Shown here in pieces: positions 33,288 to 61,556 of a stretch of 64,000 nt of DNA. The position numbers and the translations under genes are program-made. The DNA is from a virus. The notes beneath the pieces are model-generated. The model made no database searches and was not told the origin of the DNA. It was given only the letters and a program-made list of their open reading frames with translations. Position 1 is the stretch's first letter. Every line of letters begins with the position of its first letter. The stretch is taken from IMG/VR virus record IMGVR_UViG_3300035698_006566. One strand, 5' to 3'.

Positions 33288-36200
33288 TTAGATGTAGATT
33301 GTGATGTCGATGTAGTTGCATGGGTAAAGAGGCTCTACGTCCACGTCTACTTCCAGTGTATCAGGTGCGTCCTCAGACTGCCTGATCTCTGTTAGTACCG
33401 CGTGCTTCACCACTTGATCCTGGACCATCTTATCCAGAACACCCGTTATCGCCGCACTCACACCGTCAATGAATATTTCCGTAATATTGGATGTCCCAAT
33501 GTAACTCTTGAGGCTTACCCTGAGAGTTTTGGACACGAAATCCACGGCCTTGGTGATGGATAGCTCTCTAGTTTCAATAGAGGCGACATTCGTTGACAGT
33601 TGATGGAACGAAGTCAGTGGGGCTCCATCCCCTTCCTGAGTTATCGAGTACACACCACCGGCAGACATGACTTCCAGTTGTGATTCCTTGAACAGCTCAT
33701 TGGAACCTTGGACACCGGAGAATCCTACCATTGGGTAGTTTGTAAAGCCTTGAGCAGGTAGTTGCTGTCCTACCATGCCGCAGACTGCTGCCGCTGCGTA
33801 GTATCCAGGAAGAACTTCCTCAATCCCACTTCCTCCAGCACTGGATACGAAGTCTTCTGGGAAGATGTAGAAGAATCTCTTGGATCCGTACACTTGAGCT
33901 GCACCTTGTACTGTGAGGGCGATCCTGTCCAGATCAAGTCTTGCAGGGCTACTGCCCGGTACAGTAAGTGCGGCACCTCTAACCTTCAGAGACCAGTCAG
34001 CGTTTAGTACGACTGCATCGAATGTGTCAATGTCGTAGAAGCTATCGGCATTATCCTCATCAGCGAACTGAGTATTGAATACAGCCAAGCTTCCATTGAC
34101 AGCTTGCAGGTTGTAACGCTTGAGTGTCCCAGCTTCTTCAAACTCTAGGTAGACTCCATCATCGACAGACAGATCCTCGGTTGGGTCAACGCCCAGTGCA
34201 ATGAGTCCCGCAGATGGATCCTCGTCCAAGTTAATCTGGTTGTCAGTGCCGGTGCTGTTAGCACTCAGGCCACTGGAAGCTACTTCTGAGTTCTCCTTGG
34301 TTGGGAACACCGCGTTAACAAATGCGATACGCTCACCCTTCAGTTCTGGCTCACTCATCGCTTCAACGTGGGCCTTCAGAGCTTGATGTACCTCGACCGT
34401 GTGGGTCAGAGGGGTCATGGCGTACACTTCCTTACCTTCCAGGAAGTCCAATGCTCTTGCATACGCTGCCACAGTACCTTCTGTTTGAGCAGCACTCACG
34501 TCGTCAACGCCTAGTCCGGACACTTGGCTTACCGGCGAGTTCAACATGGCCATGTAAATACCCAGGGCCAATGGGTTGTCGCTGTTGATAGGACCAAGCA
34601 CAGATTCCAGTGTTTGCACATCGTCGAAGATAAGCAGGTCTGGCCTTTCTGCGGCTAGAGCTGATACATCCAACCTGAGACCCCTGTATTGGATGTAGGC
34701 AGGTGCCGTTACCCAAGTAGGTAGTCCACGGATGGTGTTATAGATAATGTTCGGGCCAAAGTTAGCCCCGTAGAACGCTGTGTCTACATAGAAGTTCGGG
34801 TTAGGTCTGCCAACCCCAGTGTCCATGTAAGAGCCGGATCCTGCGTACCCAAATGCTAGGCATAATGCCCACAGATCGGTACCACCAGCCCATGCCATCA
34901 TGGATGGCCAGCCCTTGGACCATGAAGTGAAGGTCAGAACCTCAGAACTGTAGGAAGCAATGGTGTACCCGAAGTGCTCGTTAATCACGGACACTACATC
35001 CCCAACGTTACCGCCGTCCAGAATGACCTCAAACTTACGAGGGAACCAGTCCATCATGAGCTGCATGGTCTTGCCAACCAACTCAACGCCTACAGCGGCT
35101 TTGTAGTTAGTTTCTGGGTCATCATAAGGAGCTACCTCTGATGGGTAGGTGAATGTGTCTGAATCTATACCGGCTGCCTCAGGGGCATCCCAGGCGGAAC
35201 CACCGGTAAATGGGGTCTCACCTTGGTATACAGACAGAGCAGCTCCGGCACCGGCGTCTACTGTGCGTAGAACTACCGCTTCCAACACATCGTTGTATTC
35301 GATAACAACCATGCGGTTACCATTTGAATCAGACAGATCCTCAGCATGGTAGGTGTTGACCTCATCCCAAAAGTCAGCGACCGTTAGATACGATGTTGAG
35401 GGTACCGCATCGTGAGTACCGATGGTAAGGGTCAACCTTACAGGCTCTGCCGGATCTGGCGCATGGAAGTCGTTGACAAACAGCTCAAGCTCATTTAGTT
35501 GCAATTGATCTTGCGACAACGTTGTCAGGGTAGTCACGTCCATGAGCACTGCGGGCAGTGCCACCTTAGGATCTTGTCCTACTGCTGTGTCATCTTCGTA
35601 CCCGTCTAGACCAAGTGCTTCCAGCCCGGTTCCACCAACGATGGCTACACCATTGTCTTCACCGGAGTCAGCAGCATACACGATCAACTTATCGGCGTTA
35701 CTACCGAATGCTAGGTCATCAAACCCAGCGGTATCTGAACCGAGCAGAGAGATCATCTCTGCCATGTTTGTCACTTCACCTGTGAAGGTGTAGGTCACTG
35801 CGTCTTCCCATTCACTATCTACCTTGGCTTGCAGAGTAACTGTAAGTCCACCCGCCGCCAATGGGAAAGTGATATCTTCACTTACAAACTGTGCAGTGAA
35901 CGCTGGGGAAACGTACCCTGGGTAATCTACAGAAGCTGCCTCGTTAGAGTCGTCTGTGGTGTAGAAGTCCAAGTCTGCCGCTTCGCCGTACCATTTGGTG
36001 GGGGCAAACGGAGTTGTATGGTACAGGGTGTTAACCTCAGACGGGTTGTACACCTTGGTAGTTGCGTTTCCATCGTCATCATATGTACTGAGTATTGGGT
36101 CCACAGTTCCGAGCTTAGCCCTACGGCCAGTGGCATCGAATTTCATGATCTCAGCATCATTGAGCTGAGCACCAAGTACAAACAACTTGTCCCCAACTTC

Positions 36201-37277
36201 AAAGATCTCGTCCCCAGTTAGGGAGTCGGCCTGGAAGTTGAAGAAGTCATCATACATTTCGGAACCGGACATCTCATTCCACACCGCGTCTCCAGTGGAG
36301 TCGGTGGTCCAGGTACTTCCATTGTATGTGGTGTTGCCGACAATGAACTCAAGTTCGTCATCAGTGTAGTACATGTACATAGGCACGTTAGTACCCGTGT
36401 CAAACTCTAGGTCATCGGAGTCAATGGCGGTGCCATCAAGGATGAAGGACATTCCCTTAATTTCTAACCATGGGGTCAGTAGGTCGCCATCATTGTCATC
36501 ATACCCGCAAAGGCCAGCGCCAGTGACGCGGACTTCGTATGATTCTACGTCTTCCTCGTCCGTAATCTGGCCAAGTCCCAGTACACTATTGGCACTACCC
36601 CCAGCTCTAACAGTAACGCTGGACAGGGCACCTTGTGTTCTGGACTTAAGGAGTACGTGTTCTTCACCTGTAGTGGGGTGAATATATACTTCTGCGACCT
36701 CTACACCGTAGGTTTCGTTGATCTCGTCAACTACTTCCTCTGCGGTCCAGTCAGTGTCTTTGGCATCAAACTGGATGATAACATCAGATGTGGTGTCCAC
36801 CCTTGATGCATTGTCTAGCTGGATAACCAGGGTCTTGTCATGGAGATCGTAGAATCCGGATCCTTCCGGTGATTCAGGCCCATCGGAATAACCAGAGAGC
36901 AGACCAACCTTGGTGGTCGTATTTCTGTGGAAGTGAACACCAAACAGTCTTGCCTTACCCGGGTCCCTGTCTAAAGGAACAAGCTCTTGGTTTTGAAGCA
37001 AGAAAGCTCTGATTTCCTCTTGGAGAGCACTGATGTTTACTTCATCAATGTTTCCTCTTGGGGATGGGAATGATGATTGGTCAACCATCAGTGGAGCTTG
37101 CTTATAAGTCTCCGCTAAAGCATCACTGTTTACTGCTCCTGTTGCATCAGTAGCCTCGACGATTTCATACGCCGGTCCCACGATGCAAGGCATCAATGTA
37201 GGGGTCAGGATAGTAGGGGAATTCGAGCGAATTGTCTGCCTTACAGTAACCCCTGGTCTTGACAATGAAGTTGCCAT
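33288..37277 (-). CDS. giant tail-sheath-like protein (1329 aa)
   Basis: C-terminal ...VASIETRELSITKAVDFV...DTLEVDVDVEPLYPCNYIDITIYI resembles the conserved sheath C-terminal domain. Confidence 0.45.
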   Translation of the reverse strand: MATSLSRPGVTVRQTIRSNSPTILTPTLMPCIVGPAYEIVEATDATGAVNSDALAETYKQAPLMVDQSSFPSPRGNIDEVNISALQEEIRAFLLQNQELVPLDRDPGKARLFGVHFHRNTTTKVGLLSGYSDGPESPEGSGFYDLHDKTLVIQLDNASRVDTTSDVIIQFDAKDTDWTAEEVVDEINETYGVEVAEVYIHPTTGEEHVLLKSRTQGALSSVTVRAGGSANSVLGLGQITDEEDVESYEVRVTGAGLCGYDDNDGDLLTPWLEIKGMSFILDGTAIDSDDLEFDTGTNVPMYMYYTDDELEFIVGNTTYNGSTWTTDSTGDAVWNEMSGSEMYDDFFNFQADSLTGDEIFEVGDKLFVLGAQLNDAEIMKFDATGRRAKLGTVDPILSTYDDDGNATTKVYNPSEVNTLYHTTPFAPTKWYGEAADLDFYTTDDSNEAASVDYPGYVSPAFTAQFVSEDITFPLAAGGLTVTLQAKVDSEWEDAVTYTFTGEVTNMAEMISLLGSDTAGFDDLAFGSNADKLIVYAADSGEDNGVAIVGGTGLEALGLDGYEDDTAVGQDPKVALPAVLMDVTTLTTLSQDQLQLNELELFVNDFHAPDPAEPVRLTLTIGTHDAVPSTSYLTVADFWDEVNTYHAEDLSDSNGNRMVVIEYNDVLEAVVLRTVDAGAGAALSVYQGETPFTGGSAWDAPEAAGIDSDTFTYPSEVAPYDDPETNYKAAVGVELVGKTMQLMMDWFPRKFEVILDGGNVGDVVSVINEHFGYTIASYSSEVLTFTSWSKGWPSMMAWAGGTDLWALCLAFGYAGSGSYMDTGVGRPNPNFYVDTAFYGANFGPNIIYNTIRGLPTWVTAPAYIQYRGLRLDVSALAAERPDLLIFDDVQTLESVLGPINSDNPLALGIYMAMLNSPVSQVSGLGVDDVSAAQTEGTVAAYARALDFLEGKEVYAMTPLTHTVEVHQALKAHVEAMSEPELKGERIAFVNAVFPTKENSEVASSGLSANSTGTDNQINLDEDPSAGLIALGVDPTEDLSVDDGVYLEFEEAGTLKRYNLQAVNGSLAVFNTQFADEDNADSFYDIDTFDAVVLNADWSLKVRGAALTVPGSSPARLDLDRIALTVQGAAQVYGSKRFFYIFPEDFVSSAGGSGIEEVLPGYYAAAAVCGMVGQQLPAQGFTNYPMVGFSGVQGSNELFKESQLEVMSAGGVYSITQEGDGAPLTSFHQLSTNVASIETRELSITKAVDFVSKTLRVSLKSYIGTSNITEIFIDGVSAAITGVLDKMVQDQVVKHAVLTEIRQSEDAPDTLEVDVDVEPLYPCNYIDITIYI

Positions 37278-37294: not shown

Positions 37295-37954
37295 TTAGTC
37301 CTTGCCTGCTTGGGTGGTTTGTGTAATCTCCCCACCTACTTGGGCGTGGGCCTTAATAGCTTTCAGTGTATGGTAGCCGACCTTCTCTGCTTTCCACAAG
37401 TGCTGGATGACAAATGGTGATTGCACTACGACATCAGTTATTTCATCAGCACCGTCACCACTTACTATTTCCCCTGGGTCTGTGGGTGATCCTAGTACCA
37501 TCTCTTCTCCTACTCTATGCATACCCTTTTTCTGTAATGGCCTTTTGTACATACGTGTACTGAGGTATACAATGGATCCTATCCTACTCGCTTCATCCGG
37601 TGTAGAAGATAAGCAGTGTATGATAGCAGCACATGAACTCAGATCTGAATGCACTCTGCTACCAGTTTTGAAATTGGTATGGACCATGTTATCAAGAGAT
37701 AAGTTGGCAAATTGAGCAGGAGTTCTTTGAACAATTATTGCCCTGCCTTTATCAACAACATCCATGGCCTTAACCGGTGAAGCCCCAGTGATTATTATCT
37801 CTGAGGTCTCAGCATTATCATTCCACCTACCAAACCCTTCGGTACAATGGCTAAACAACCACTTATAGAAAGATATCAAGTTGTTGGTAGCTATCTTAAA
37901 TGGGTCATACCTCCAGTCGGGTAGGTATGGGCTATCTGTGACTTTAGCTGCCAC
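37295..37954 (-). CDS. hypothetical structural-module protein
   Basis: ORF track 219 aa. Confidence 0.45.
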   Translation of the reverse strand: MAAKVTDSPYLPDWRYDPFKIATNNLISFYKWLFSHCTEGFGRWNDNAETSEIIITGASPVKAMDVVDKGRAIIVQRTPAQFANLSLDNMVHTNFKTGSRVHSDLSSCAAIIHCLSSTPDEASRIGSIVYLSTRMYKRPLQKKGMHRVGEEMVLGSPTDPGEIVSGDGADEITDVVVQSPFVIQHLWKAEKVGYHTLKAIKAHAQVGGEITQTTQAGKD

Positions 37955-38333
37955 TTAGTTTGTCTTTCTCTTTAGATATGGAATCGCTATACACTTTGTC
38001 TCTTTCAGCAGAGTGTAGAGCTGTTGCTGCCCCACCTAGCCCACCAGCCAGCATTGGAATAAGCTTCAAGTACTTGGCTTTGGAAGACCTAGGCATACTG
38101 TACATGACATCATCAAGCCTCTTAGAACTCTCTCGTAGGGCCCCAAGGCCTTTTCTAGCTAACCAACCAGTTCCATACCCAGCACCAGCCCCTACGCCTG
38201 TGGCAGCTAGTACCTTGGGTAACGCCTTAAGTCGGCCTCTGTTCTCTGCCTTCCTATCTTCAGGAGACATAGAATCCTCGGCAATCTTGATTAGCTCTTG
38301 CTCCCGCAAGAATGATTGTGCGATAGGTTCCAT
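37944..38333 (-). CDS. hypothetical Gly-rich protein
   Basis: ORF track 129 aa. Confidence 0.4.
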   Translation of the reverse strand: MEPIAQSFLREQELIKIAEDSMSPEDRKAENRGRLKALPKVLAATGVGAGAGYGTGWLARKGLGALRESSKRLDDVMYSMPRSSKAKYLKLIPMLAGGLGGAATALHSAERDKVYSDSISKEKDKLSGS

Positions 38334-39202
38334 TAACTACTCCCAAATGCTCTAAATATAGAATCCCTGGATGGCCAGTTCGGTTCTAGTTGCTGTGGAT
38401 TAGTGTATTCCCTTTCCGGTGAAGGATCAAAGGATAATACGTCTACATGTACAGGTAGTTTATAAGTTATGTGGGTGGAGGGCAATAGTCCCATAGATAG
38501 TTCTTGATGAACATTGGCCCTCAACCTCTCTGTGCCCGTGACGCCCTTAACTTTCCACCTCTTGTTATCCGCCTCTATGATTATATCATTGGGCTTAACT
38601 GTGGGGAATGATGGCATACGGGCTGTGGCTAGTACCGCTTGTACTTTCTTAATAACGGTATCCACGTCCTTCTTTAAGTTAGGATCTATCTGTATTAGTA
38701 TCTCTAGCGGCTTTAGGTAACCACCGACCCACCCAGTGTCAAAGCATGTCTTACACTTCGATACAGTCCTGGTTTCGCTAATAGGGTCTACGCAATGACA
38801 CCGTTGTCCAAATGTCTTAGCTGGGTACATTATAGCCTTGCGGCCATTGTGCTCTTTGAATGTAATGTACTCAACCCGCCGCATCTCAATAGCATCGAGT
38901 GGTGCCTCAGCCTCACGGGAAGCAGGGTCTGACAGTACTTCCGTGGTAGTAGACCTTTGGATGGTCTTGATAACGTAGTGGTACTGTCTCCACTTGTTAT
39001 GTGCCTTTACCGAAGTGTCTCTGAAATGGTATCCATCAACTATAGGCCCAGCTATGGCATCCCAAGGACCCCCAACGGATTCAGAACGGAGAACATAGAA
39101 CTCGTAATCCCGCACATCGTCTGTAGTGGGGGCTATTTCCCAGAACAGATCTAAGTAGTCGGTATCGAACGACACCACTTTTATGTTGCGGACACTTAAC
39201 AC
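38333..39202 (-). CDS. hypothetical structural protein
   Basis: ORF track 289 aa; start overlaps upstream stop. Confidence 0.5.
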   Translation of the reverse strand: MLSVRNIKVVSFDTDYLDLFWEIAPTTDDVRDYEFYVLRSESVGGPWDAIAGPIVDGYHFRDTSVKAHNKWRQYHYVIKTIQRSTTTEVLSDPASREAEAPLDAIEMRRVEYITFKEHNGRKAIMYPAKTFGQRCHCVDPISETRTVSKCKTCFDTGWVGGYLKPLEILIQIDPNLKKDVDTVIKKVQAVLATARMPSFPTVKPNDIIIEADNKRWKVKGVTGTERLRANVHQELSMGLLPSTHITYKLPVHVDVLSFDPSPEREYTNPQQLEPNWPSRDSIFRAFGSS

Positions 39203-39465
39203 TACACCCTCAGTGCCTTGTTAGTTTGGAACTTAGCTTGTGGTGTGGCCATGGTCTTGCCACCTTTAAGCTTGAAAGCGCCTCTAGCTATATCATTGCC
39301 CATTGATTTACGTACCATCCCCGCTAGTCCTGCGGGCTTAGATGCTGTAGCCCCTAAAGACGTTTTGATAGCGTGCCTAGAGGGAGACATGAACTTGGGT
39401 AACATCCTACCCGCACTTGCGATATTGGCTAGTGCCACCTTTTGAATACTGCTTAGCTTAACCAT
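39202..39465 (-). CDS. MIKLSSL-family small basic protein
   Basis: internal ATG gives MVKLSSIQKVALANIA; AAGGGGC RBS; overlaps upstream stop by 8 nt (ATGGTTAA). Confidence 0.55.
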   Translation of the reverse strand: MVKLSSIQKVALANIASAGRMLPKFMSPSRHAIKTSLGATASKPAGLAGMVRKSMGNDIARGAFKLKGGKTMATPQAKFQTNKALRV

Positions 39466-39754
39466 TGGTAAGCCCCTTAATTCTGTCACGGAACTTCTTG
39501 CCTTTACCCTTCTTGGGGGTGAAGTTGTTCCGCATTCTTTTGCCTATTGAAGTGGCTTTCCTACTTAGTGTCCCGGGTAGGGTATGAACGGTCTCCCCTA
39601 ACCCAGCCATCTTCTGTTGTGCTGCCTGAGTCTTCCCTGCCAAGCTCCTTTGAACTGTGTGCAGAAATTCAGCTTCGGTGCAGGCCCTCTCCATAGTCTT
39701 AGACATGGCAGTAGGGTCTCCCGCTATTTTATGTAATGAACTGAGCTTTACCAC
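39458..39754 (-). CDS. MIKLSSL-family small basic protein
   Basis: MVKLSSLHKIAGDP...; overlaps upstream stop. Confidence 0.55.
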   Translation of the reverse strand: MVKLSSLHKIAGDPTAMSKTMERACTEAEFLHTVQRSLAGKTQAAQQKMAGLGETVHTLPGTLSRKATSIGKRMRNNFTPKKGKGKKFRDRIKGLTNG

Positions 39755-40437
39755 TTGCCCCCCTTGTCACGCATCGCGTTGGCAAACCCGCCTTTAGGGG
39801 ATCCACCCGGAGCTCCGTGCATTACGGCGGCCCCAGCATTACGTAGTTGGTTAAACAGCCCTGGGTTATTACCTTGACCCATCACTGTGTTCTTACCTGT
39901 GTTCCACAGATTACCAACTTCCCTAACAGAGTCGGATGTTAGTCGTTTCAGCCCAAAAGCTCTACCCGCTGCGTTCCTAGTTAACGGATTGAACAGCCCC
40001 TTTATGCCGTGCTCCTGTACCTGCTTACCCGCGTAACCTATTATACCGGGTAGATCTTGTGCAAACCTACCGTACTGCTCAACCGTGCCTTTAGCATTCA
40101 TAGCTAGGTTCTCAGTTCTACCTGCTACGTTGGTGGCCGTACCCAAGTTGGCTCCAATCCCTCTACCCATCTGGTGAAGGCCCTTGTTCTTAGCAGTTCT
40201 GGACAGCAATCTCTCTCTGGTCTTCAACCCACTCATTAGGTCAGGGGCCCTGAGCCAGTTCATAGCTCTAGACACACCTTTGGAGGAGGTCATACCAGTA
40301 GGGTCATGAGCTAGCACTCCAGAGTAAATATCTGTTGCTCTCCTGGCTTTGTCTCCGCCAGCTCCGAGTAGTTTCATAGCCCCACGTTCCAGCCAAGCTC
40401 GGTTAGCAGCTTTCTCTAGTGAGCTCATCTTAATCAT
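39748..40437 (-). CDS. MIKLSSL-family protein
   Basis: start MIKMSSLEKAANRAW at internal ATG; GGAGGTGG RBS; ATGATTAA overlap with the stop of ORF 40430..41779. Confidence 0.55.
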   Translation of the reverse strand: MIKMSSLEKAANRAWLERGAMKLLGAGGDKARRATDIYSGVLAHDPTGMTSSKGVSRAMNWLRAPDLMSGLKTRERLLSRTAKNKGLHQMGRGIGANLGTATNVAGRTENLAMNAKGTVEQYGRFAQDLPGIIGYAGKQVQEHGIKGLFNPLTRNAAGRAFGLKRLTSDSVREVGNLWNTGKNTVMGQGNNPGLFNQLRNAGAAVMHGAPGGSPKGGFANAMRDKGGKW

Positions 40438-41779
40438 GTCCACCTCCTGTATGCACTCTGCCACGACCGCCTGTGTAAGTACCGGTTGGGTTTGTAATCT
40501 TAGGTCTTGGTGCCGGTTTGCCAGCTAACTCTTCATACACTTTGATGCGGTCTCCCGCCTCACTGTTCTGCTTAGCAGAAGTCCTACTCCAGTTACGGAG
40601 TTCAGGATTTTCATCATAGAACTTAACTGAACCCCTACCCCTTGAGAACTCATCCTGGGTAGCAGTTAGCCCTGGTTTAACTTCCCTAACCAAAGCCATG
40701 TGCTCACCTTTCGGCTGTATCCCCTCCGCCTTCATATCCTTGATCTTCTTGAGCTGCAACGCTCTATCTTCTGCAATCCAAGGAGGCTCTACACCGTGTT
40801 TAGGAGCAGGCTTAGGGAAGTCGCCTTTCCTACTAGCCCAGTACTCAGGTTTACCCGTAGCCTTGTTAACCCTGGCCACGTCAACCTTTCCAACCGGCCT
40901 GGAGTATTTCTCACTCTTATAAGCCCCGGGGTATGAGCTTTCCAAGTCTTTTGCTTGTCTCTCTAAGAACTTAGCTCTACCTGGGTCAGAAGACTCAGCG
41001 GCACGCCTCATCCTATTAACAGTCTGCTTAGCTTCAACAGGGGCCATGCCCTTGATAGCCTTTAGGTCAGCAGTGCTGGGGCGTCCTCCCATTAACCTAC
41101 TTAGGAATCCTAGTCGTGACCCGGGCTGCTCATTACTTTTCAAAGACTTTAGTGCACTCATGTAGAAGTGCGGCTCTGTCCTACTAATAGGATCTCTGCC
41201 CCTACTCTTCTTAAGTACCTCTTTACCCAACGCCGCAGACAGTAAAATGGCAGTACCGGCAGCACCAGCAAACCCTATCTTCTTGTCTTTACGGTCTTGC
41301 TTCTGTAACTTACGGTATCCTTGACCCTCAGCATTGACTCTCTGCTTGAACTCAGAGGCTCGTCCTAATGCCTTAGCCTTCATTTTACGTATAAGCCTGA
41401 TTGGGGCTGAGACTTTAGCTGCATACTTTGCCAAAGCTTCCTCATCTCTAGTAGCTCTGTGAGCAGCATACAAGATACCATCATCACTGCCCGCTTTAAC
41501 CAGTCTAGCCACTTGGGTTCCTGCGAGGAACGCGGGGACGGAGGCCAGCATTGCCGTGCCCACCGGATGCTCCGTAGCCTCCTCCGCGCCCTCATGGATC
41601 TTTTGGGTTAGTCCTTCACCGAACTTCCCTTTACGGGAATCGGCTAGGTTACCAGTAACCCGTCCCCCAATGGATCGGCCCTCGTCTCCCCTGGGTTTAC
41701 TAAGCTGGTACTCCCCTAATGCGGCAGCAACAGCTATTCCAACCGGGATGGCAATTCGTTTATCTAGTTTAGGTACCAC
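40430..41779 (-). CDS. basic low-complexity protein (internal virion/ejection-protein-like)
   Basis: 449 aa rich in K/R/G/A; structural module. Confidence 0.5.
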   Translation of the reverse strand: MVPKLDKRIAIPVGIAVAAALGEYQLSKPRGDEGRSIGGRVTGNLADSRKGKFGEGLTQKIHEGAEEATEHPVGTAMLASVPAFLAGTQVARLVKAGSDDGILYAAHRATRDEEALAKYAAKVSAPIRLIRKMKAKALGRASEFKQRVNAEGQGYRKLQKQDRKDKKIGFAGAAGTAILLSAALGKEVLKKSRGRDPISRTEPHFYMSALKSLKSNEQPGSRLGFLSRLMGGRPSTADLKAIKGMAPVEAKQTVNRMRRAAESSDPGRAKFLERQAKDLESSYPGAYKSEKYSRPVGKVDVARVNKATGKPEYWASRKGDFPKPAPKHGVEPPWIAEDRALQLKKIKDMKAEGIQPKGEHMALVREVKPGLTATQDEFSRGRGSVKFYDENPELRNWSRTSAKQNSEAGDRIKVYEELAGKPAPRPKITNPTGTYTGGRGRVHTGGGHD

Positions 41780-41790
41780 AGATCTTTATC

Positions 41791-42714
41791 CTATGTTGCC
41801 GATAGCCCTACGTGTGGAATCTGGTCAACCGCCCCACCTTCCCACACAAAGTCACCTATGGTAGCAGTATGAGTAGAAGCAGACGGATCATCTGGATCAT
41901 CAGAGTTGTAAACAGCGAAAACATGGAATGTACCCTCGGTCCAATCATTGTCAGGTACGTAGAAGGTAACGGGGTCGCCCACATTACCTTCCACCTCCGT
42001 GTCGGGTTCACCTAGGGTACCGAAAGGTCCATCTTGAGTCATAATGTAGACAGTATCATCGGCAGACCCTACCGCATCACCAACACTAGCCTCACAAGTT
42101 ATCGTATGATACGGGGCACCCCATGGAGGCACTGTGGTCCAGTCCTCTGCATCAGGTTGCATATCAGCCAATAGAAAAGCCATGGGCATAATGAGCAGCC
42201 CTGCATAGTCAGCCTTCTTAGCTATACCGGCTTCTGACTCGGGGTTGATAAATGCCAAGCGCATACCCGCTGTCCACCAAGCTTTTACCTGGGGCACTGT
42301 TATATCCATAGCCTCCGGGTTCATAAGAACTGGGGATATCATTTCCACAATCTCAGCGGCGGTAGGGAGGTCCCCCAGTACATCTGGGTAATACCCTAGT
42401 GCAACGCCTCCTAAGTATAGGCTATGCATGACACGGTACGACTGTGGGTTAACTATAAAGGTTACATTCCACATACCATTGGCAGAGTCATACACAGGCC
42501 CCTGCATAGCAAACCCTGCGTCCCAATCCACCTCATACCCAATTTTATCGTTGGTCAGCCCACTGTCTACTATCTCATCGTACATAGCCAACGCCGTGTC
42601 CTCATTGAACAGATTGGTGAACGAGGACATGGTGGTGCCGATATTATTGATAGTAAGGAAGTCCACTACGTTAGCCAACTTCTTACTACTGTATGTGTGC
42701 CATTTACGAATCAT
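41791..42714 (-). CDS. structural protein, tandem paralog 2
   Basis: homologous to ORF 42718..43659 (GPVYDSANGMWNVTFIVNPQSYRVM vs GPVYDPANGNWTITYQVNPYSYRVM). Confidence 0.5.
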   Translation of the reverse strand: MIRKWHTYSSKKLANVVDFLTINNIGTTMSSFTNLFNEDTALAMYDEIVDSGLTNDKIGYEVDWDAGFAMQGPVYDSANGMWNVTFIVNPQSYRVMHSLYLGGVALGYYPDVLGDLPTAAEIVEMISPVLMNPEAMDITVPQVKAWWTAGMRLAFINPESEAGIAKKADYAGLLIMPMAFLLADMQPDAEDWTTVPPWGAPYHTITCEASVGDAVGSADDTVYIMTQDGPFGTLGEPDTEVEGNVGDPVTFYVPDNDWTEGTFHVFAVYNSDDPDDPSASTHTATIGDFVWEGGAVDQIPHVGLSAT

Positions 42715-46305: not shown

Positions 46306-46794
46306 TTAGCCTTCGTGGATGAATTGAACCCAGTCAGCATATCTGCCAGACGCCCACAACCTTACCACGTAGCCTACGATGTAATGACCGGCCTCTGCGA
46401 GACCAAGGCCACGTCTGACGATTCCGCCATCATCGAAGTCTTGTACTGAAAGTGGGTCACCAACTGAGAGTCCATCCGGACTATTCACGAGGTTGGTTCT
46501 TGCCTCGTAAGCTCCCAGGAAGAGTAGCGGCAAGCCGCCGATCACCTGTGTGCTGTACGCTCCCGATTGAATGTATACCGGGAAGGACGGAACCGTAGCT
46601 GCGTCCTCTTCATCTGCCTCTCCATCCCCGCCACGGCCTACAGTATAATTGTAGTTGTCCGCGAACTGGAGCCACTCGCCGTCTACGATGGGACGAGAGG
46701 ACATCGGATTCAGGTACTCAGACTCCGAAGAGTCAACAGTAAAGGTCTGAACCCAGATGGTATTAAATGGTGATAGAAGTTCGAAGTGTTGCAT
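46306..46794 (-). CDS. hypothetical head-module protein
   Basis: ORF track 162 aa. Confidence 0.4.
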   Translation of the reverse strand: MQHFELLSPFNTIWVQTFTVDSSESEYLNPMSSRPIVDGEWLQFADNYNYTVGRGGDGEADEEDAATVPSFPVYIQSGAYSTQVIGGLPLLFLGAYEARTNLVNSPDGLSVGDPLSVQDFDDGGIVRRGLGLAEAGHYIVGYVVRLWASGRYADWVQFIHEG

Positions 46795-46806: not shown

Positions 46807-47163
46807 TTATCCTTCCAGGATTGCTTCGATGAATGCTTGTTCTGCTTGACCTGTGTTGACTCCGTTACCGTCATCACCACCAGCCACCTTGGCCAGACCT
46901 ACTTGGTTAGCGGACAGATCCACTGCCTGTTCCACCACATCCAAATCTTCCCGGCCCATGAACGTAGCGATCTTCTCATCGAATGACAAGTCCGGTAGAA
47001 TGTTTTTGTCTTCCATTACCTTCGCAAGCTTGACAACTCTGTCTTGCTTTTCGAAAGTAGCTACCTTGTCCCTTAACACCCCATTCTCGGAAGAAAGGGC
47101 TCGTAGGGATTCAGCGGCTCTCTTGAAGATGTTTTGAGCTTCGCTCTGTTTAATGAGTCCCAT
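46807..47163 (-). CDS. scaffold-like coiled-coil protein
   Basis: 118 aa helical, acidic. Confidence 0.4.
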   Translation of the reverse strand: MGLIKQSEAQNIFKRAAESLRALSSENGVLRDKVATFEKQDRVVKLAKVMEDKNILPDLSFDEKIATFMGREDLDVVEQAVDLSANQVGLAKVAGGDDGNGVNTGQAEQAFIEAILEG

Positions 47164-47174
47164 AGTTACCTTCC

Positions 47175-48437
47175 TTACGCCATTTGGGGCGCTGTTGGTT
47201 CACCACCCTCTTGCTCGGGAGGAGCGTTTCGCTCACCACAAGAAGAACATACACCGTCCGACTTGGCTACCTCACCACCACACTTTTCGCATGGGTAGGT
47301 ACCTTCGACATCAGATGCCTGCTTTTCTGCCAGTTTGCTTTGGACAAAGCCTGCTAGCTTAGTCTTTTGCTCCTCGGTTCCGTGTTGGAGGATTGCCTCT
47401 GCCAAAGTCCCTACTTCCACACCTAGCTGACTCGAAATCTTCACACCTGCTTTTGAGGTGTTCTCGAAGGCGGCTTGGAGCACGTCGTCGGTACTAGTGG
47501 TCAAGGCTGGTTCACTGAGAACCTCTTTCATCAGCGTCTTTTGGGGTGCTTTAGCCTCACCCTTGGTGTAATTGATAACCTTCTCCAGGCTACCAGTTAC
47601 CAAGGACTTTTTGGCACCATCAACCCCAGTCGGCTGAGTTCTCTTCTCTTTCTTACCTTCTTCTTCCGAAGCTGTCGCGGAGTACCCAAGCTCTTCCTTG
47701 TGAAGGGAGTCGTCTAGGGTAGCTGATTCCGCTACTTTACCCATCAGGTAGTTACGGAGAGCTGCGGCCTTTTCCTCACCATCGTCCATTTTCTCAATGA
47801 TGTTGAGGTCAGGCTTCTTCTCTACCTTAGCTACTTCGGGGGCTTCAACAGAAGCGGTTTCTCCATCCTCAGCACTCTTGTTAAGGTTCATGATGGTTTC
47901 CGCCATCTTCTTAACAAATGCAATCTTGGCTGAAGTAGGTGTCTTCACAAAGGGAGCATCAGCCTGGGTCATCCAGTAAGCTTCTCCCTTTCCCTGTGGT
48001 TTATGCCTAGTATTTTCCATAAGAGTCGCAGATGGTGTCTCCGGATCCTTCTGCTTACCGGCAGTCTCCTTCGGTAGCTGCGCGTTAGCACTAGCTGTGA
48101 AGTTCAACAAACCTTCTTTGGGAGGGTCAGTTGTATAGTTATTGGTTAGCGCGGTATCACCTTCTCCAGGGCCCGCAATTGCCTCATCGACCGCCGCACT
48201 CTTGATGCTACCCAGAGCTAGCTTTTCAGCCAACTTCTCGTGCTGAGACCTGTCATCGACTATGTATCCTAGGTGGTCCCCAAGATAATCGACGGCCTGA
48301 GCCAGCTTGTCCACTTCACTTACTTCAATAAGAGTGGGGTCTGCTGACGGCGGCGTCTCCTGTACTGTGCTTGCGGTCTTGACCCTATCCTTGGCTTCCG
48401 CCATGGTGCGTTGGATCAAGTCGGAAAGCTGTGCCAT
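47175..48437 (-). CDS. scaffold-like acidic protein with C-terminal Zn-ribbon
   Basis: 420 aa, E/K/A-rich; CEKCGG...CSSCG. Confidence 0.45.
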   Translation of the reverse strand: MAQLSDLIQRTMAEAKDRVKTASTVQETPPSADPTLIEVSEVDKLAQAVDYLGDHLGYIVDDRSQHEKLAEKLALGSIKSAAVDEAIAGPGEGDTALTNNYTTDPPKEGLLNFTASANAQLPKETAGKQKDPETPSATLMENTRHKPQGKGEAYWMTQADAPFVKTPTSAKIAFVKKMAETIMNLNKSAEDGETASVEAPEVAKVEKKPDLNIIEKMDDGEEKAAALRNYLMGKVAESATLDDSLHKEELGYSATASEEEGKKEKRTQPTGVDGAKKSLVTGSLEKVINYTKGEAKAPQKTLMKEVLSEPALTTSTDDVLQAAFENTSKAGVKISSQLGVEVGTLAEAILQHGTEEQKTKLAGFVQSKLAEKQASDVEGTYPCEKCGGEVAKSDGVCSSCGERNAPPEQEGGEPTAPQMA

Positions 48438-48883: not shown

Positions 48884-50068
48884 TTATTGAGTTGTATCTA
48901 CCAGACCGCCATTTACCAGCATTTCCATGGCCCGTTGGTTAACAGCCTGTTCTAAAGCCTGTTCCTGTGGGTCTGCTGCTTGCATTTGCTGCATTTGCTG
49001 CGGCTGTTGCTGCATCATTTGAGGTTGCTGTACTTGCTGTTGCTGCTGTTGCCACTGCTGTGGATCCGCTGCAAACTGCTGGGTCTGTTCTACACTAGGA
49101 GCGTAGCCACCTTCGTATCCGCCCTGTTCGTAGCCACTGCCATCATCAGCATAACCGCCAGTTTCGAGACCTGGGTCCATACCCATACCGTCGTTGGCGT
49201 GCTTACGGAGATAGAATGCTAGCTTGTTGACGAATGCGCCTTCTTTGGTTTCAGGAGGGCCTGCTGGAGGTGCTGCTCCTGGGGGTGGCCCCATTGGAGG
49301 TGCTCCTGGAGGCGGTCCACCCGGTGCTGCTTCTCCACCGCCAGCTACTTGCTCAATTGCCATTTCTGCGGCTTGAGCTGCGGCTTGCTGTGCTTGTTCC
49401 GGTGGTCCACCTTGCTGAATCACTGCCACTGCTGCTGTTGCTGCGGCTTGAGCTGCTACTTGAATAGGATCTGGTTCACCTCCGCCCATTTCTGGTGGGG
49501 GACCTTCTGGTGGGGCTCCTGGAGGAGGTGCCATTGGGGGTGCTCCTGGGGGGGGTGCTCCACCTCCTACACCTGCTGCGGCAGCATCTTCCATACCTTC
49601 AGCGGTTTTGTACAGATACATAGCGCGGTCTGCGGCCAGCTTGTCTAGCTGGTTACCTTCTGCTACTTGTGAACCGATGACATTTCCGGGATCTTGACTC
49701 AGCGCGGCTTGCTTCATCAGACTGATATTTTCACGTTCTTGCTCACATGCATGAGCGGCGATCTTGCCAAGGCGGTCATAAAGGACTGCGGCTTCCTTAG
49801 CCTCTTCCCCTTCTACCTCTGTCTTGGTCTTCTTTTCAGGAACTGCTGCTACTTCTGCTGCCGGTGCTTCTTCTGCCTCGGCTTCAGCAACAAGCTCTTC
49901 TGCGATCTTTGCGATCTCAACATCACTTAGGCCGGTGATATCCATGCCTACTGATGCCATTCCGTCCGCGATAGCGTTAGCAGTATCTACAGCAGCTTGC
50001 TTCTCAAGCTCATCAGTAGTCTTACCAGTGCCATAGATGTCGGACAGGTACTTAGTGATAGGGTCCAT
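48884..50068 (-). CDS. Pro/Gln/Ala-rich low-complexity protein with an internal duplicated PPPGAPP segment
   Basis: GAPPPGAPPMAPPPGAPPEGPPPE ... GGPPPGAPPMGPPPGAAPPAGPPE; C-terminal poly-Q. Confidence 0.45.
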   Translation of the reverse strand: MDPITKYLSDIYGTGKTTDELEKQAAVDTANAIADGMASVGMDITGLSDVEIAKIAEELVAEAEAEEAPAAEVAAVPEKKTKTEVEGEEAKEAAVLYDRLGKIAAHACEQERENISLMKQAALSQDPGNVIGSQVAEGNQLDKLAADRAMYLYKTAEGMEDAAAAGVGGGAPPPGAPPMAPPPGAPPEGPPPEMGGGEPDPIQVAAQAAATAAVAVIQQGGPPEQAQQAAAQAAEMAIEQVAGGGEAAPGGPPPGAPPMGPPPGAAPPAGPPETKEGAFVNKLAFYLRKHANDGMGMDPGLETGGYADDGSGYEQGGYEGGYAPSVEQTQQFAADPQQWQQQQQQVQQPQMMQQQPQQMQQMQAADPQEQALEQAVNQRAMEMLVNGGLVDTTQ

Positions 50069-50107: not shown

Positions 50108-50512
50108 TTAGCCCTGTTGTGCTTGTTTGACAGCCAGATTAGCTTGTAGCTCTCTGAGTCCGTCTAGGCCGCCCATCTTTTCCAGATGATTAGCCAATTC
50201 GCCTGATGACACACCCAACTCTTCTGCGTGGGCAATCAGTCTACCTAGTTGATCGAATTCAGCCGCCTTCTCTAGGAATGGCTGAGACAACTGCGCCTCG
50301 TTCTGAGATGAGATGACTTCGTGAGCGATCTTATCTAAATCCGCTTCACTCATTCGTGCAGGGTCAACACCCTGTTGCACCATCAGCTCTAGGACGCCTG
50401 TTGCCGCTTCTTCAGCAGCAGTCTTCTCAATACGAGAAGTTGTGCCGTAAAGTCTGGCCAGATCTTGGTCCATTTTAGGTTCTCCTTTAGGTTCCGTTAT
50501 CCGGTTGGCCAC
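50108..50512 (-). CDS. hypothetical acidic helical protein
   Basis: ORF track 134 aa. Confidence 0.4.
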   Translation of the reverse strand: MANRITEPKGEPKMDQDLARLYGTTSRIEKTAAEEAATGVLELMVQQGVDPARMSEADLDKIAHEVISSQNEAQLSQPFLEKAAEFDQLGRLIAHAEELGVSSGELANHLEKMGGLDGLRELQANLAVKQAQQG

Positions 50513-50550: not shown

Positions 50551-51147
50551 CTAACCACCATAGTACATCATCTGCGGGTCAACTGCCATAGCTTGTTGTT
50601 GTCTATTTTTTGCTGAATGCATTAATAGTGCTCCTGCACCCGTTACTCCTGCACCCGCTCCAACAACCTTACCGGCTGATGACCATCTCCTATACGCCTC
50701 TGGGTCTAACTTGCGAGCCCCTTCAAGACCCCCATGTTGATACCCCTTTAACAACTTCTGGTACTCAGCCCCCATAGTCTTTCGTCCACCCCCACTAAGT
50801 ACTGAACCTAATTGGCCCAGCCCTGTTTCTGTAGTGGTACCTTGTGACTTAGCTAATATACGCTCTGCGTGCTCCCTAGGCAAGGAAGCTAATGCTTTAC
50901 TTTTCAACCCAGGTATAGCTGCCTGAACCTTAGGTGCCACAGCTTGGTATGCTTTAGTTAATGGCTTCTTCATCATCTTCATACCCAATGCGGTCTGTAT
51001 AGCATACCCAGGTAGTTGGCCACCACCATTAATTCCCCTATATAGTCCCTTGGCCCCACTTCGTGCCAACCCAAACCCAATACCGGCTTGGATACCGCCC
51101 ATTATGGGCCCAGCTACTTTTTGTACACTGCTTAACTTTACAGTCAT
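50551..51147 (-). CDS. MIKLSSL-family Gly-rich protein
   Basis: MTVKLSSVQKVAGP...; ATGA overlap with the stop of ORF 51144..52901. Confidence 0.55.
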   Translation of the reverse strand: MTVKLSSVQKVAGPIMGGIQAGIGFGLARSGAKGLYRGINGGGQLPGYAIQTALGMKMMKKPLTKAYQAVAPKVQAAIPGLKSKALASLPREHAERILAKSQGTTTETGLGQLGSVLSGGGRKTMGAEYQKLLKGYQHGGLEGARKLDPEAYRRWSSAGKVVGAGAGVTGAGALLMHSAKNRQQQAMAVDPQMMYYGG

Positions 51148-52901
51148 CTTACAGCCTTTGCTATTGTCGCTACAGGAAGAGCCATGGCTCCAACCGTGGT
51201 ACCTGGGTAACTAGCTATAAAATCACCTACCATACCCAAGTCTTTCCCTTCGTAGTCTCTTTTGTGACTCAAGTGGCTGGACAGAACATATGTTGCCGCC
51301 ACCGCCCCAATCGCTATTGGGATAACTCCTCCTAGAAGACCAGAGTGCTTGATGAACTGATCATCCAGCCCACCGCCGTACATAGCCTCCAGAATATTAG
51401 GGTCTTTATGTGCGGCCTCTTCTAGGTCTCCCCACTCCTGAGCCAGCTTAACCCTGTACCCATTGTACATGGAGGAGAGCTTGTCTAGTTCTGGAACACC
51501 ACCTACCTCAGTACGCCCGCCGGGCTTAGATACTGAGATGCGTATAGATACTATCCTACTTTCTAACGGTTTTTCAAACGCAGACCGTTCAGATACTAGA
51601 GAACTAAGTATGCGCTTTATGTACTCACCCACCCCAGGCGCGCGGCCCGTCATACCAGGGGCCTCCGTCACTCCATGTGGGCTACCTTTGAACACAGCAC
51701 CAGCCCTATCCATGTCATCAGCCATACCCTTGCGCCCATTACATACTAAAGCTATGCGTTGGAACTCATGAGGCTTGAGAACTATACCCCTAGAGGCTGT
51801 CTCTCCCAGAGCACCTGGAAGGCCAAGACGTGATAGTTGGTCTAAATTAGAGGATCCTATATCGGGCTCAGCTTCTGCTAATGCCTTAACAGTGTCCATG
51901 GTCTGCTTACGAATGTTAGTTGGGATCTCTTTGACGATCTCACTCAGCTTGCTCATACGGACAGCTTTAGCCATCTTGGTATGGAATGTGGGCACCACGT
52001 AAGAAGCAGTCTTATCAATACCAGTCTCGCTATCCGCGCGAGAGTAGCTATATTCTCCCAGATCGGCAGAACTCATGGGGTAACAACCCTTGCAATCCTC
52101 AGGCGGTCTGGTACAACTCACACATTGAGCGTTAGCCACCTTCATCATAACCTTGGCTATCTTATCCGCCCCAATAAACACAGGGCAAGAGATATCAAAG
52201 AACTTGGGGTGAAGGTTAAGGACATACACTTGACGCCCATCCGGCATGATCTTGTTCATGCTGTGCAACACCTCAGGGTCATAGTCAGCCCTGGTAATAG
52301 CTAACCCAGGTATAGGAGTCTTCTTATGCTCGGCCAGTATCTCTTTAGGGTCACGGTTTAGGTACTCCCGCCAATTGGGGCACCTAATCACGTTGATATC
52401 AAATGGAACCTTACACCCCATAGACACATCAACGGGTTCCCCATTATCTATCCGTTGCATATCTCCGCCCATCCCACGTTCATCTGCCTTCGCACGGTCT
52501 ATCTCTAATAGAAGCTCGATGCGGTACATAGCTGGGTTAGCTGCGGCGGCCAGGATACTACCATACCCCTGCTTGGGGTCCTTGTTCCTATGATGCCCAA
52601 ATACTGTGGCGGTATTGAATGTGTGGAAACCCCAACCGGGTCCAGTATAGAGAAGTGACTGCCACGGGAAGTAATCCCCGTTTCGGTTAGCTCCATAGAA
52701 CTCTCCAGCTCCCAACGCAATAACCAACACCCTTAACATCTTAGGGTTAGGTACTAACTTGTCTATTGCGGCTTGTATCTCAGGGAGTACGGAAGGGGAG
52801 GCGTGTTTTAACATACCTCGGCCTCCATAGTTTTGAATGGGATAAACTAACTGATTACCCCTTTCATCAACACCCTTAAACTGGCAGAGTTTAGTAATCA
52901 C
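51144..52901 (-). CDS. hypothetical head-morphogenesis protein (portal or prohead-protease candidate)
   Basis: 585 aa between the terminase and capsid genes; no firm motif. Confidence 0.35.
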   Translation of the reverse strand: MITKLCQFKGVDERGNQLVYPIQNYGGRGMLKHASPSVLPEIQAAIDKLVPNPKMLRVLVIALGAGEFYGANRNGDYFPWQSLLYTGPGWGFHTFNTATVFGHHRNKDPKQGYGSILAAAANPAMYRIELLLEIDRAKADERGMGGDMQRIDNGEPVDVSMGCKVPFDINVIRCPNWREYLNRDPKEILAEHKKTPIPGLAITRADYDPEVLHSMNKIMPDGRQVYVLNLHPKFFDISCPVFIGADKIAKVMMKVANAQCVSCTRPPEDCKGCYPMSSADLGEYSYSRADSETGIDKTASYVVPTFHTKMAKAVRMSKLSEIVKEIPTNIRKQTMDTVKALAEAEPDIGSSNLDQLSRLGLPGALGETASRGIVLKPHEFQRIALVCNGRKGMADDMDRAGAVFKGSPHGVTEAPGMTGRAPGVGEYIKRILSSLVSERSAFEKPLESRIVSIRISVSKPGGRTEVGGVPELDKLSSMYNGYRVKLAQEWGDLEEAAHKDPNILEAMYGGGLDDQFIKHSGLLGGVIPIAIGAVAATYVLSSHLSHKRDYEGKDLGMVGDFIASYPGTTVGAMALPVATIAKAVR

Positions 52902-55611: not shown

Positions 55612-55640
55612 AGGGGGGACAGGGCCACCCCCCTTTCTCT
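55612..55640 (+). terminator. GC-rich hairpin terminator (GGGGGG-ACAGGGCCA-CCCCCC-TTTCTCTT)
   Basis: between convergent genes. Confidence 0.4.
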
Positions 55641-58663: not shown

Positions 58664-58664
58664 C

Positions 58665-60402: not shown

Positions 60403-60425
60403 GAAGGGGGCAACCCCTTCTTTTT
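60403..60425 (+). terminator. rho-independent terminator (GAAGGGGG-CAA-CCCCTTC-T5)
   Basis: hairpin plus TTTTT then AGCTA. Confidence 0.55.
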
Positions 60426-61056
60426 AGCTAGTAAACCCTAAAGACCTAGCGGGCCTACCCTTCAGTTTGCGGGCAAGCATCTGCTCTATTGGTAGTTTAC
60501 CTTCCCTACGCATCTGATCAGTTACAGGGGTCCCAGACTTACCTGATATATCCTTGGCCGCCCTAGCCAATACGTCTTTATTCAGCTTAGCCTGTGGGAT
60601 CTTTAACACCTTGTTCAGCTTACCTTTGGCAATGCCGTACCCTAAAGCAGCCTCCGTCATGAGTGGGGAGGGTATTAAGGGGATCAATGATGCTTCTGGA
60701 GAGGACTTAGCCACATTAACCATCTGTCCTCTACTCCATCTCAGAGCTTTCTCAATCCATTTCTGCCTAGGTTTTCCTAACTGCTGTAAAGCACCACTTA
60801 CAACCTTCTTACCCACGTCATGAACTAGGCCTTCATACATTCCTTTGGTCACTGTATTGGCTAAGGCATCCCTAGTTTTAGATCGGATAGAGGTCTCCAT
60901 GCCTTTCAGCTCCCCAGAGCTTCGTACCTTCTGGATCAACTTCGGCGTCACCTGACCCCGGAACTTAACAGGAGTAGATCCTATACGGGCCAGTCTGGCC
61001 AGCAAAGCCTCCTTGATCAAGTCAGACTCTTGGAGAAATGTACTTTCTACCGTCAT
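60424..61056 (-). CDS. hypothetical basic protein
   Basis: ORF track 210 aa. Confidence 0.45.
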   Translation of the reverse strand: MTVESTFLQESDLIKEALLARLARIGSTPVKFRGQVTPKLIQKVRSSGELKGMETSIRSKTRDALANTVTKGMYEGLVHDVGKKVVSGALQQLGKPRQKWIEKALRWSRGQMVNVAKSSPEASLIPLIPSPLMTEAALGYGIAKGKLNKVLKIPQAKLNKDVLARAAKDISGKSGTPVTDQMRREGKLPIEQMLARKLKGRPARSLGFTS

Positions 61057-61061
61057 GGTCG

Positions 61062-61556
61062 TTACCTACCTTTACGCATCAGAATCTTTGCAGCGTCCTT
61101 GAGACCTTTAGACTTGTATAGTGCGTCACCCACTCGTCCACCGACAGCCCTAGTACCTTTGGCCTTGGCCATAGCTTTATCATGCATTTTCAACCCTTTA
61201 CGTGCTCCTAGGTATCCGCCCGCACCAAACCCTATATTTGCACCGAAGTTAGCCCCCTGATGTGCACTGGAGATGTTCTTAGGTCCGGTTTCTCCACCTA
61301 TGACCATACCTGCTAGGGAGCCTACTCTCTCACCGGTACCAGCTCCAAGCATGCCCATACCTATTACACGTCCAGCTTGACCTTTAGCTGTCTTTAGCTC
61401 TTTGGCCCTTTGCCCAATGACATGCTTCTTGGCCTTACCTCCGCCATAAAAAGCAGCCCCTCCAGCGGCAGCCCCACTCCCGGCTACGGCAACATTCTTC
61501 TTCTTCTTCTTCTTGTCCCCTTCAGCCGCTTTTAATAGTGTGCTAGCTTTAATCAT
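61062..61556 (-). CDS. MIKLSSL-family Gly-rich protein, tandem paralog B
   Basis: MIKASTLLKAAEGD...; C-terminus GTRAVGGRVGDALYKSKGLKDAAKILMRKGR nearly identical to the upstream paralog. Confidence 0.55.
   Translation of the reverse strand: MIKASTLLKAAEGDKKKKKKNVAVAGSGAAAGGAAFYGGGKAKKHVIGQRAKELKTAKGQAGRVIGMGMLGAGTGERVGSLAGMVIGGETGPKNISSAHQGANFGANIGFGAGGYLGARKGLKMHDKAMAKAKGTRAVGGRVGDALYKSKGLKDAAKILMRKGR

Follow-up and report, generated by a model that had tools for sequence, protein, structure and literature searches.

The window analysed here, a 64,000-nucleotide stretch of viral DNA from IMG/VR record IMGVR_UViG_3300035698_006566, contains eight small open reading frames (ORFs) that share a short N-terminal tag. 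Searching the six-frame translation of the 64-kb window with the pattern [IV]K[LMA]S[STN][LIV]x[KE][VAI] returned exactly eight matches, which are the eight tagged ORFs; all lie on the minus strand and start at ORF residue 2-4, and the coordinates and N-termini listed in the original prediction were all recovered. The same search on 100 mononucleotide shuffles of the window gave a mean of 0.01 matches and a maximum of 1, and a relaxed version of the pattern found no further match in the window. The consensus of the leader, which is 11-13 residues in length, reads M-(x0-2)-[IV]-K-[LMA]-S-[STN]-[LIV]-x-K-[VIA]-[AS]. On balance we think it probable that the tag is a portable capsid-targeting sequence (CTS) as the term is used for T4, which would recruit basic cargo into the prohead and then be cut off by the protease of the phage, p585.

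The conservation is at the level of the peptide, since both the serine codons (TCC/TCT/AGC/AGT/TCA) and the leucine codons (CTG/CTA/CTC/TTA) differ between the tags and the DNA upstream of the ORFs is dissimilar among the members. This agrees with the original prediction, which had taken the varying codons as a sign of selection on the peptide and had also correctly described the proteins as basic and Gly/Ala-rich. All have an isoelectric point (pI) of 10.3-12.0, with a net charge of +13 to +25 in the seven longer proteins (glycine and alanine content 19-38%) and +4 in the ORF of 32 amino acids (aa). With the first 14 residues stripped, the sole detectable kinship was that of 61062..61556 with 61559..61996 (m164 and m145), tandem paralogs that share 33 C-terminal residues at 88% identity. 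The proteins do therefore diverge beyond the N-terminus as had been claimed, this pair excepted, but the word 'family' used for them does not hold, as the bodies are otherwise unrelated and what they have in common is a tag. A short N-terminal peptide on otherwise unrelated small proteins, N-terminal in all eight matches, is the arrangement of a T4-type CTS. The end of the tag is also regular. All eight leaders carry K-x-[AS] at residues 9-15; in seven this takes the form phi-x-K-[VIA]-A/S at residues 7-11, and in the eighth LAKHA at residues 11-15.

Tagged genes inside and outside the virion module

The phage is novel, myovirus-like and known from short metagenome contigs. Its virion module is the minus-strand block from ~30 to 64 kb, which includes genes for the large terminase (TerL), the major capsid protein (MCP) and a protein with a tail sheath match (Table 1). 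In IMG/VR the MCP has 257 relatives and in the JGI metagenomes it has 318, with a best identity of 60% and on contigs of up to 195 kb. Judged by MCP, Salmonella phage Arash (25%), three Vibrio phages and Bacillus phage G come closest among cultured phages, the identity to Arash and Bacillus phage G being 22-25%; a megablast of 14 kb against cultured phages matched nothing. Synteny across 80 IMG/VR loci revealed a conserved backbone of TerL, p315, p241, p585, p420, p118, p162, MCP, p159, p289, p129 and p219. The four tagged proteins of the head/neck block, p449, p313 and p136 had no counterpart in these 80 loci (the paralog p307 was not searched), and the related phages have no gene at the position of m198. 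PHROGs and Pfam gave no match for the eight tagged members or p449, the sole match of m229 among 5.8e9 proteins was itself, and a profile of m164/m145 matched only m145 itself (P0122, 145 aa) among 1.84e9 representatives. The tagged genes would thus appear to have been inserted, in a lineage-specific way, at variable positions of a module that is otherwise conserved.

Several of the tagged genes are translationally coupled to their neighbours. Three had been described as chained to p449 through 8-nt ATG[AG]TTAA start/stop overlaps, which we observed at 40437/40430 and 39465/39458, whereas the overlap at 39754/39748 is a 7-nt GTGGTAA at a GTG start. The ATGA overlap of m198 with the gene upstream, which encodes p585, had been placed correctly, at 51147/51144. 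Being coupled to p449 and to the gene of the protease is in keeping with production alongside the head proteins. The overlaps also bear on the possibility that the tag is a functionless by-product, either of repeated capture of a gene start (ribosome-binding site and ~11 codons) by recombination or of constraint from the start/stop overlaps. Codons 1-3 (ATG/GTG RTW AAR) do encode the upstream TAA stop as well in three members, and a tandem paralog pair is present in m164/m145. However, the overlap constrains codons 1-3 alone and in 3/8 genes, the upstream regions are unlike, the tag DNA has diverged at synonymous positions with the peptide retained, and the peptide agrees with motifs that distant phages conserve in proteins unrelated to these, as set out below. 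We consider a by-product very unlikely.

The ORFs at 89..187 and 191..571 had been counted as members of the structural module, but both lie outside it, as isolated minus-strand ORFs at the far end of the plus-strand gene and tRNA region. The shorter may be a truncated duplicate or remnant, and it is not called as a gene on three public contigs that bear this stretch. The location of this pair, one of which has promoter-like sequence, would suit a tag that directs proteins elsewhere (host membrane, nucleoid, a chaperone or a protease) or that sets the order of ejection rather than packaging. The Gly/Ala-rich, weakly hydrophobic and glycine-zipper-like stretches of the tagged proteins could be read in the same way. 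Yet no tagged protein has a transmembrane-grade hydrophobic segment, the maximum KD19 being 1.28. In addition, 6/8 members sit within the head/neck block, translationally coupled to head genes including that of the protease, and both halves of the tag are common to head-assembly proteins only. A destination or role of this kind is improbable in our view.

The prohead protease and its candidate cleavage motif

Sequence methods gave no identification of p585, the product of the gene directly upstream of m198. In an AlphaFold model based on an alignment of 57 homologs the core was confident at residues ~40-257, with a predicted local distance difference test (pLDDT) score >90. Confidence was low on either side of it, at 1-35 (a disordered N-terminal stretch) and 258-332 (a disordered linker), and the C-terminal domain that follows is helical. 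As modelled, the domain at ~40-257 is an assemblin/gp21 fold, a serine protease domain of the assemblin type in which His and Ser are invariant. The phage encodes a gp21/assemblin-fold prohead protease, as is found alongside a T4-type CTS. Within its hypervariable low-pLDDT regions p585 has three K-x-A islands, at residues 32-34 (MLKHAS), 297-299 (IDKTAS) and 518-520 (FIKHSG), which are 93-98% conserved across the 57 protease homologs. In the family the first island reads FEKTAG at ~residue 32, just before the catalytic domain, the second xEKTAS at ~residue 297, in the linker after the protease domain, and the third MFxKTAS, ~65 residues from the C-terminus. The K-H-A of the eighth tag is the same as that in the first site of p585 itself. 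Some prohead-protease homologs are 800-2000 aa in length (P0016, P0051, P0100, P0112, P0114, P0121; L008, L030, L069 and others) and contain inteins (Hint/LAGLIDADG Pfam matches) or an inorganic pyrophosphatase domain (PF18823), inserted or appended.

To follow the second half of the tag beyond the leaders we used the motif [LIVMF]xK[VITLA]A, written here as phi-x-K-phi-A, which was derived from the window before being applied to the relatives. The head-module proteins of the window contain 25 motifs against 4.3 expected from within-protein shuffles (z ~10), and all other window proteins 5 against 4.2. In the relatives, the genes up to 7.5 kb upstream of the MCP encode proteins with 455 motifs against 56 expected, and those downstream 121 against 41, counts that are inflated by shared ancestry and are not phylogenetically independent. 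The downstream motifs favour the first 50 residues (40%, with 17% expected). The enrichment, 6-8x in head-module proteins, is directional and specific: the forward motif occurs at 8.3x its expectation and the reversed motif at 0.83x, with 0.96x when Arg replaces Lys, 1.4x for Glu in place of Lys, 1.3x for Gly in place of Ala and 3.2x for Ser in place of Ala. The logo is [ED]-x-[LFM]-E-K-[LVTI]-A-[SAE]-A. Acidic scaffold-like proteins have 2-7 copies each, in the window, in the relatives and in Arash (gp220-gp225 and gp242). This distribution is the one expected of a prohead-protease site, as cleavage there would free the protease domain, dismantle the core and trim the leaders, and the motif is probably the prohead-protease site of the clade, cut after the Ala.

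Arash (OQ632216.1; L172-L174) has the protease in common, as gp222, whose homology to p585 is clear (E 2e-75), and its head-module proteins gp220-gp225, gp242 and gp222 are dense in phi-E-K-[TVA]-A-[SA], for example IEKTASAR, MEKAASTT and LEKAAAVN, the last present three times. A different leader that also ends in K-phi-A was observed on p129 and p210 of the window, where F-[LV]-x-E-x-[ED]-L-I-K-[IE]-A places the K-phi-A end at residues 15-19. Homologs of p129 in relatives carry K-phi-A at a similar position (L075 MISYEAFHEEVVKIA; L004 ...SFAKLAG). It is possible that this is a second leader class.

A phage protease is not the only enzyme that could remove such a leader. In Staphylococcus phage 80alpha the capsid and scaffold proteins carry a ribosomal L27-type leader (MLKLNLQFFA) that is cut by the host protease Prp, and there is a superficial N-terminal likeness to the tags in M-[IL]-K-L-[NS]-x-[LQ]; many homologs of p585 also start MIKQ[LV]Q[FY]FG. 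The tags, however, end in K-[VIA]-[AS], without the F-[FH]-A of the Prp site or any aromatic pair, and the phage has an assemblin-fold protease of its own, with K-phi-A at many internal positions. Removal by a Prp-like host protease is highly unlikely.

The core protein p420 and the proposed role of the leader

The first half of the tag also has a counterpart in the head module. In the window p420, an acidic core/scaffold-like protein, reads ...FENTSKAG-VKISSQ..., an instance of the clade-wide block T-x-x-AG-VKISS, and among 58 non-redundant relatives EPALSxxxDxxLxxAFDxTxxAG-VKISS is the most conserved stretch of this protein. In the relatives AARALLxKLAEE comes 0-12 residues after the block (longer in a few). 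The match is readily seen in L070/L076, where the p420 block is TKLSSVQKVAAA and may be compared with VKLSSVQKVAG in the tag of m198. When a profile made from the contiguous 12-mers of the relatives was run over the six-frame positions of the window, two tags ranked first and second, above the p420 block of the window itself. A spliced pseudo-motif of VKISS and LxKLA put four tags on top, and was discounted because the splice had been designed after the tags were seen; we rely on the contiguous profile, which is free of this bias. Upstream of the MCP there is also an excess of K[LIVM]S[ST] (54 against 11 expected), the MCP N-arm in many relatives (QKLSSAEGKEKIAEYGG) carries QKLSS...EKIAE-YGG, and one protease subfamily starts MIK[LV]SxF...FEKVAS. 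Both elements thus recur, in one and the same order, in several conserved prohead components, of which the tag looks to be a condensed form. The C-terminus of p420 (47175-47300) contains a CxxC...CxxC zinc-ribbon-like segment (YPCEKCGGEVAKSDGVCSSCGE) with a weak Pfam Zn_ribbon_3 match; most relatives have p420 tails rich in Pro, Glu and Ala, and the tail of L071 is Cys-rich too.

We propose that eight unrelated, highly basic and lineage-specific proteins are brought by the leader into the core of the prohead as it assembles. The first half, VK[IL]SS, would be a docking element that attaches to the prohead core or shell and mimics the p420 block, with a looser likeness to the protease N-terminus in some relatives. 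The second half, phi-x-K-phi-A followed by G/E/S/A, would be the protease site, cut after the Ala as in the herpesvirus assemblins, which are related in structure. Once mature, the basic proteins may remain associated with the DNA and serve as internal or ejection proteins, with possible roles in charge neutralisation, anti-defence or early functions. A T4-like capsid-targeting propeptide recognised by a prohead protease was what the original prediction had suggested, and the protease gene upstream of m198, the head-enriched motif and the p420 match speak for it; the Glu-type cleavage logo of phiKZ and T4 does not apply here.

The main rival to this proposal is that the tag and phi-x-K-phi-A are uncleaved docking motifs, short linear peptides that bind the capsid interior or core much as encapsulin cargo-loading peptides or the coat-binding helices of scaffolds do, so that tagged proteins would be loaded with the N-terminus kept. 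Enrichment confined to head-assembly proteins and a disordered location fit binding as well as cleavage, the failure of Arg to replace Lys suggests specific recognition, and the match of the first half to the conserved p420 block would be explained equally by docking. What makes us regard binding alone as unlikely is the position of the three conserved sites in p585, which are placed as the autoprocessing sites are in herpesvirus pUL26, together with the repeated motif copies in the acidic core proteins, which scaffold degradation would lead one to expect. An assemblin-type pocket would also accommodate a small residue at the Ala position, followed by S/A/E (PMC4498786).

Several observations weigh against a cleaved capsid-targeting leader. 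The definition of the phi-x-K-phi-A motif was post hoc, made with the data in view, and shared ancestry inflates its counts in the relatives. Directly after the tag the residues (G, E, N, L) vary more than at other sites, where S/A/E is favoured, and the MCP of the window has no canonical motif, its N-arm being conserved and not propeptide-like. The scores of the tags against the p420-block profile are low in absolute terms, at 6-7 bits. A broad-family profile of protease N-termini did not rank the tags high, and their likeness to these N-termini is limited to the MIK[LV]SxF subfamily. Two tagged genes lie outside the structural block. No copies of the N-terminal tag were found in the 80 related IMG/VR loci (80 metagenome loci were not scanned), and a DNA-pattern scan of IMG/VR gave 8 loci, chance-like single matches from two unrelated sequences, at a low sensitivity, since the 14 fixed bases required mean that the pattern would catch ~1/8 of real tags. 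Neither the Arash paper nor its supplement gives peptide-level data or mentions a protease or processing, and the structural proteins of Arash have no common N-terminal tag. We also considered MST[VI]QK[VI]NFEP, the N-terminus of the protein encoded directly upstream of the MCP in relatives (for example L004 9454-9978), which resembles the SS[VI]QKVA of the tag. This is probably coincidence; the window ortholog (46306-46794) starts MQHFELLSPF, so the sequence is not conserved, and it looks to be part of the fold.

A wider reading takes in the whole clade and is plausible, although we hold it only tentatively. The clade, large, mostly uncultured and represented by hundreds of contigs from soil, sediment and water, would consist of myoviruses of 120-200 kb, with Arash as a cultured outlier. 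Its assemblin-like protease would have Lys-x-Ala specificity and a herpesvirus-style layout, in the order N-propeptide, protease, release site, scaffold-like domain and maturation site. In one lineage a minimal 11-residue cargo-loading leader may have been distilled from the elements by which protease propeptide, core protein and capsid N-arm are recognised, and it would have spread to at least eight fast-evolving basic proteins.

Among the neighbouring genes, two encode tandem paralogous acidic proteins, p307 and p313, with similar N-termini and a weak Ig-like match, just upstream of p449 and the chain of tagged genes; a role in head decoration or as fibres, specific to the lineage, is possible for them. 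The sheath protein is unusually long, and its large N-terminal part has no family assignment. Plus-strand genes at 57965-60400, for a phosphoesterase, a nucleotidyltransferase (phrog_388) and a phrog_19422 protein, split the structural block between the terminase and the tagged genes at 60-62 kb. In all, 17 tRNA genes are spread among the plus-strand genes at window positions 6715-29091 (Ser x2, Leu x2, Thr x3, Arg, Asn, Ala, Gln, Asp, Val, Trp, Phe, Ile-tat and Met).

Table 1. Tagged genes, head-module genes and neighbours in the window, with the leader and the residues after it where one is present.
Feature	Position	Strand	Remarks
32-aa tagged ORF	89..187	-	MIKLSNLREALAKHA then G; doubtful gene
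m126, tagged	191..571	-	MIKLSTLSKVS then LNR; pI 10.8; solitary, own TATAAT and AAGGAG, outside structural block
1329-aa protein	33288-37277		Last ~200 residues match tail sheath families
p129	37944..38333	-	Conserved small virion-module protein; other leader ending K-phi-A (MEPIAQSFLREQELIKIA then EDS)
m87, tagged	39202..39465	-	MVKLSSIQKVA then LAN; pI 12.0; start overlaps upstream stop by 8 nt (ATGGTTAA)
m98, tagged	39458..39754	-	GTG start; M/VVKLSSLHKIA then GDP; pI 10.9; 7-nt GTGGTAA overlap with upstream stop
m229, tagged	39748..40437	-	MIKMSSLEKAA then NRA; pI 11.0; 8-nt ATGATTAA overlap with stop of p449
p449	40430..41779	-	Untagged basic ORFan, 449 aa, pI 10.1; heads translationally coupled chain of three tagged genes
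p307	41791-42714	-	Acidic, 307 aa; paralog of p313
p313	42718-43659	-	Acidic, 313 aa; paralog of p307
MCP	45154-46302		Major capsid protein, phrog_2522
p118	46807..47163	-	Small, acidic, kept in relatives, scaffold-like composition; two phi-x-K-phi-A
p420	47175..48437	-	Acidic core/scaffold-like protein, encoded upstream of MCP; VKISS at 47430-47444
p394	48884..50068	-	Acidic Pro/Gln-rich head-module protein; five phi-x-K-phi-A
p134	50108..50512	-	Acidic head-module protein; three phi-x-K-phi-A (IEKTAA, LDKIAH, LEKAAE)
m198, tagged	50551..51147	-	MTVKLSSVQKVA then GPI; pI 10.3, Gly/Ala-rich; ATGA overlap with protease gene stop
p585	51144..52901	-	Prohead maturation protease, from AlphaFold model and alignment of 57 homologs
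TerL	55640-57427		Large terminase
p210	60424..61056	-	Basic, adjoins m164; leader like that of p129 (MTVESTFLQESDLIKEA then LL)
m164, tagged	61062..61556	-	MIKASTLLKAA then EGD; pI 10.7; paralog of m145
m145, tagged	61559..61996	-	MGQVKLSSLYKVA then ESE; pI 11.0

Experimental proof of capsid-targeting leaders comes from very few phages (T4 and P1). A leader and a probable protease motif that can be read from the genome would allow the packaged proteome and the maturation cleavages to be predicted for hundreds of uncultured large phages, and the Lys-x-Ala logo is a candidate for a large uncultured clade that includes the cultured Arash. The 11-residue tag is itself a candidate for loading foreign proteins into capsids and, if true, would be natural, sequence-defined and engineerable, and from outside the T4 group. 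The tagged ORFans are good candidates for injected anti-defence proteins. The site layout may offer a bacterial-virus example of the Ala-type, herpesvirus-like arrangement, which bears on the shared ancestry of maturation in tailed phages and herpesviruses.

Comparison with known systems

Encapsulins load their cargo through short peptides that are usually C-terminal, uncleaved and of the GSL type, and they occur without a terminase, portal or tail. The tag resembles these peptides in being short, in sitting on unrelated cargo and in its proposed docking inside an HK97-fold shell. An encapsulin nanocompartment operon is ruled out here by the large terminase and tail sheath genes at the locus. 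In phage P1 the N-terminal signal of DarB, of >9 and <=30 residues, is enough to send a reporter into the capsid, and the cargo is an anti-restriction protein (PMC9024508). DarB differs from the present system in being a single protein with no shared tag, no known consensus and no shown link to a protease site.

In the phages phiKZ, 201phi2-1 and SPN3US the inner-body and ejection proteins are processed by a gp175-type protease (PMC9026906, PMC5694885). N-terminal propeptides with redundant protease sites on many head proteins would be a feature in common, as would the large set of internal or ejection proteins that virions of the phiKZ group hold. In contrast, cleavage in that group occurs after Glu in S/A/G-x-E, the propeptides are long and have no stereotyped 11-mer, and the genomes are unrelated. 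Herpesvirus pUL26 consists of assemblin, R-site, scaffold and M-site, with cleavage sites YLQA-T and VQA-S (PMC4498786). The predicted cut after a small residue that is followed by Ser or Ala is similar to that of the herpesvirus assemblins, and the islands of p585 parallel the R- and M-sites. Unlike the herpesvirus protein, p585 belongs to a bacterial virus, has an extra N-terminal site and appears to require a Lys two residues before the Ala.

The closest comparison is with T4, where a CTS is present on the internal proteins IPI, IPII and IPIII (Mullaney & Black 1996; reviewed in PMC9026906 and PMC3012670). In IPIII the first 10 residues suffice for packaging, residues 4 and 7 of the CTS are needed for targeting and 8 and 10 for processing, and the N-terminus of gp21 contains a cleavage-logo site for which a CTS-like role has been proposed (PMC9026906). 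The internal proteins are diverse defence proteins with the CTS alone in common (PMC3012670). Both systems have a leader of ~10 residues on small, basic, diverse and poorly conserved proteins, with a two-part order in which targeting residues would precede the protease site. Both also have a gp21-fold prohead protease, predicted in the present case, with a leader-like N-terminus, and cargo genes that are scattered and lineage-specific. There are differences in that the inferred cut lies after Ala in phi-x-K-phi-A whereas T4 is cut after Glu in L/I-x-E, the phage is not T4-like (MCP phrog_2522), eight tagged genes fall within 64 kb, and the system is known here from sequence alone. Inspection of the eight leaders revealed no similarity to MKTYQEFIAE and no conserved Glu, which makes the tag an analogue of the T4 CTS and not a homologue. 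In the other features that can be checked from sequence the tag nevertheless resembles the T4 CTS, and it would appear to be a new sequence variant of a known mechanism.

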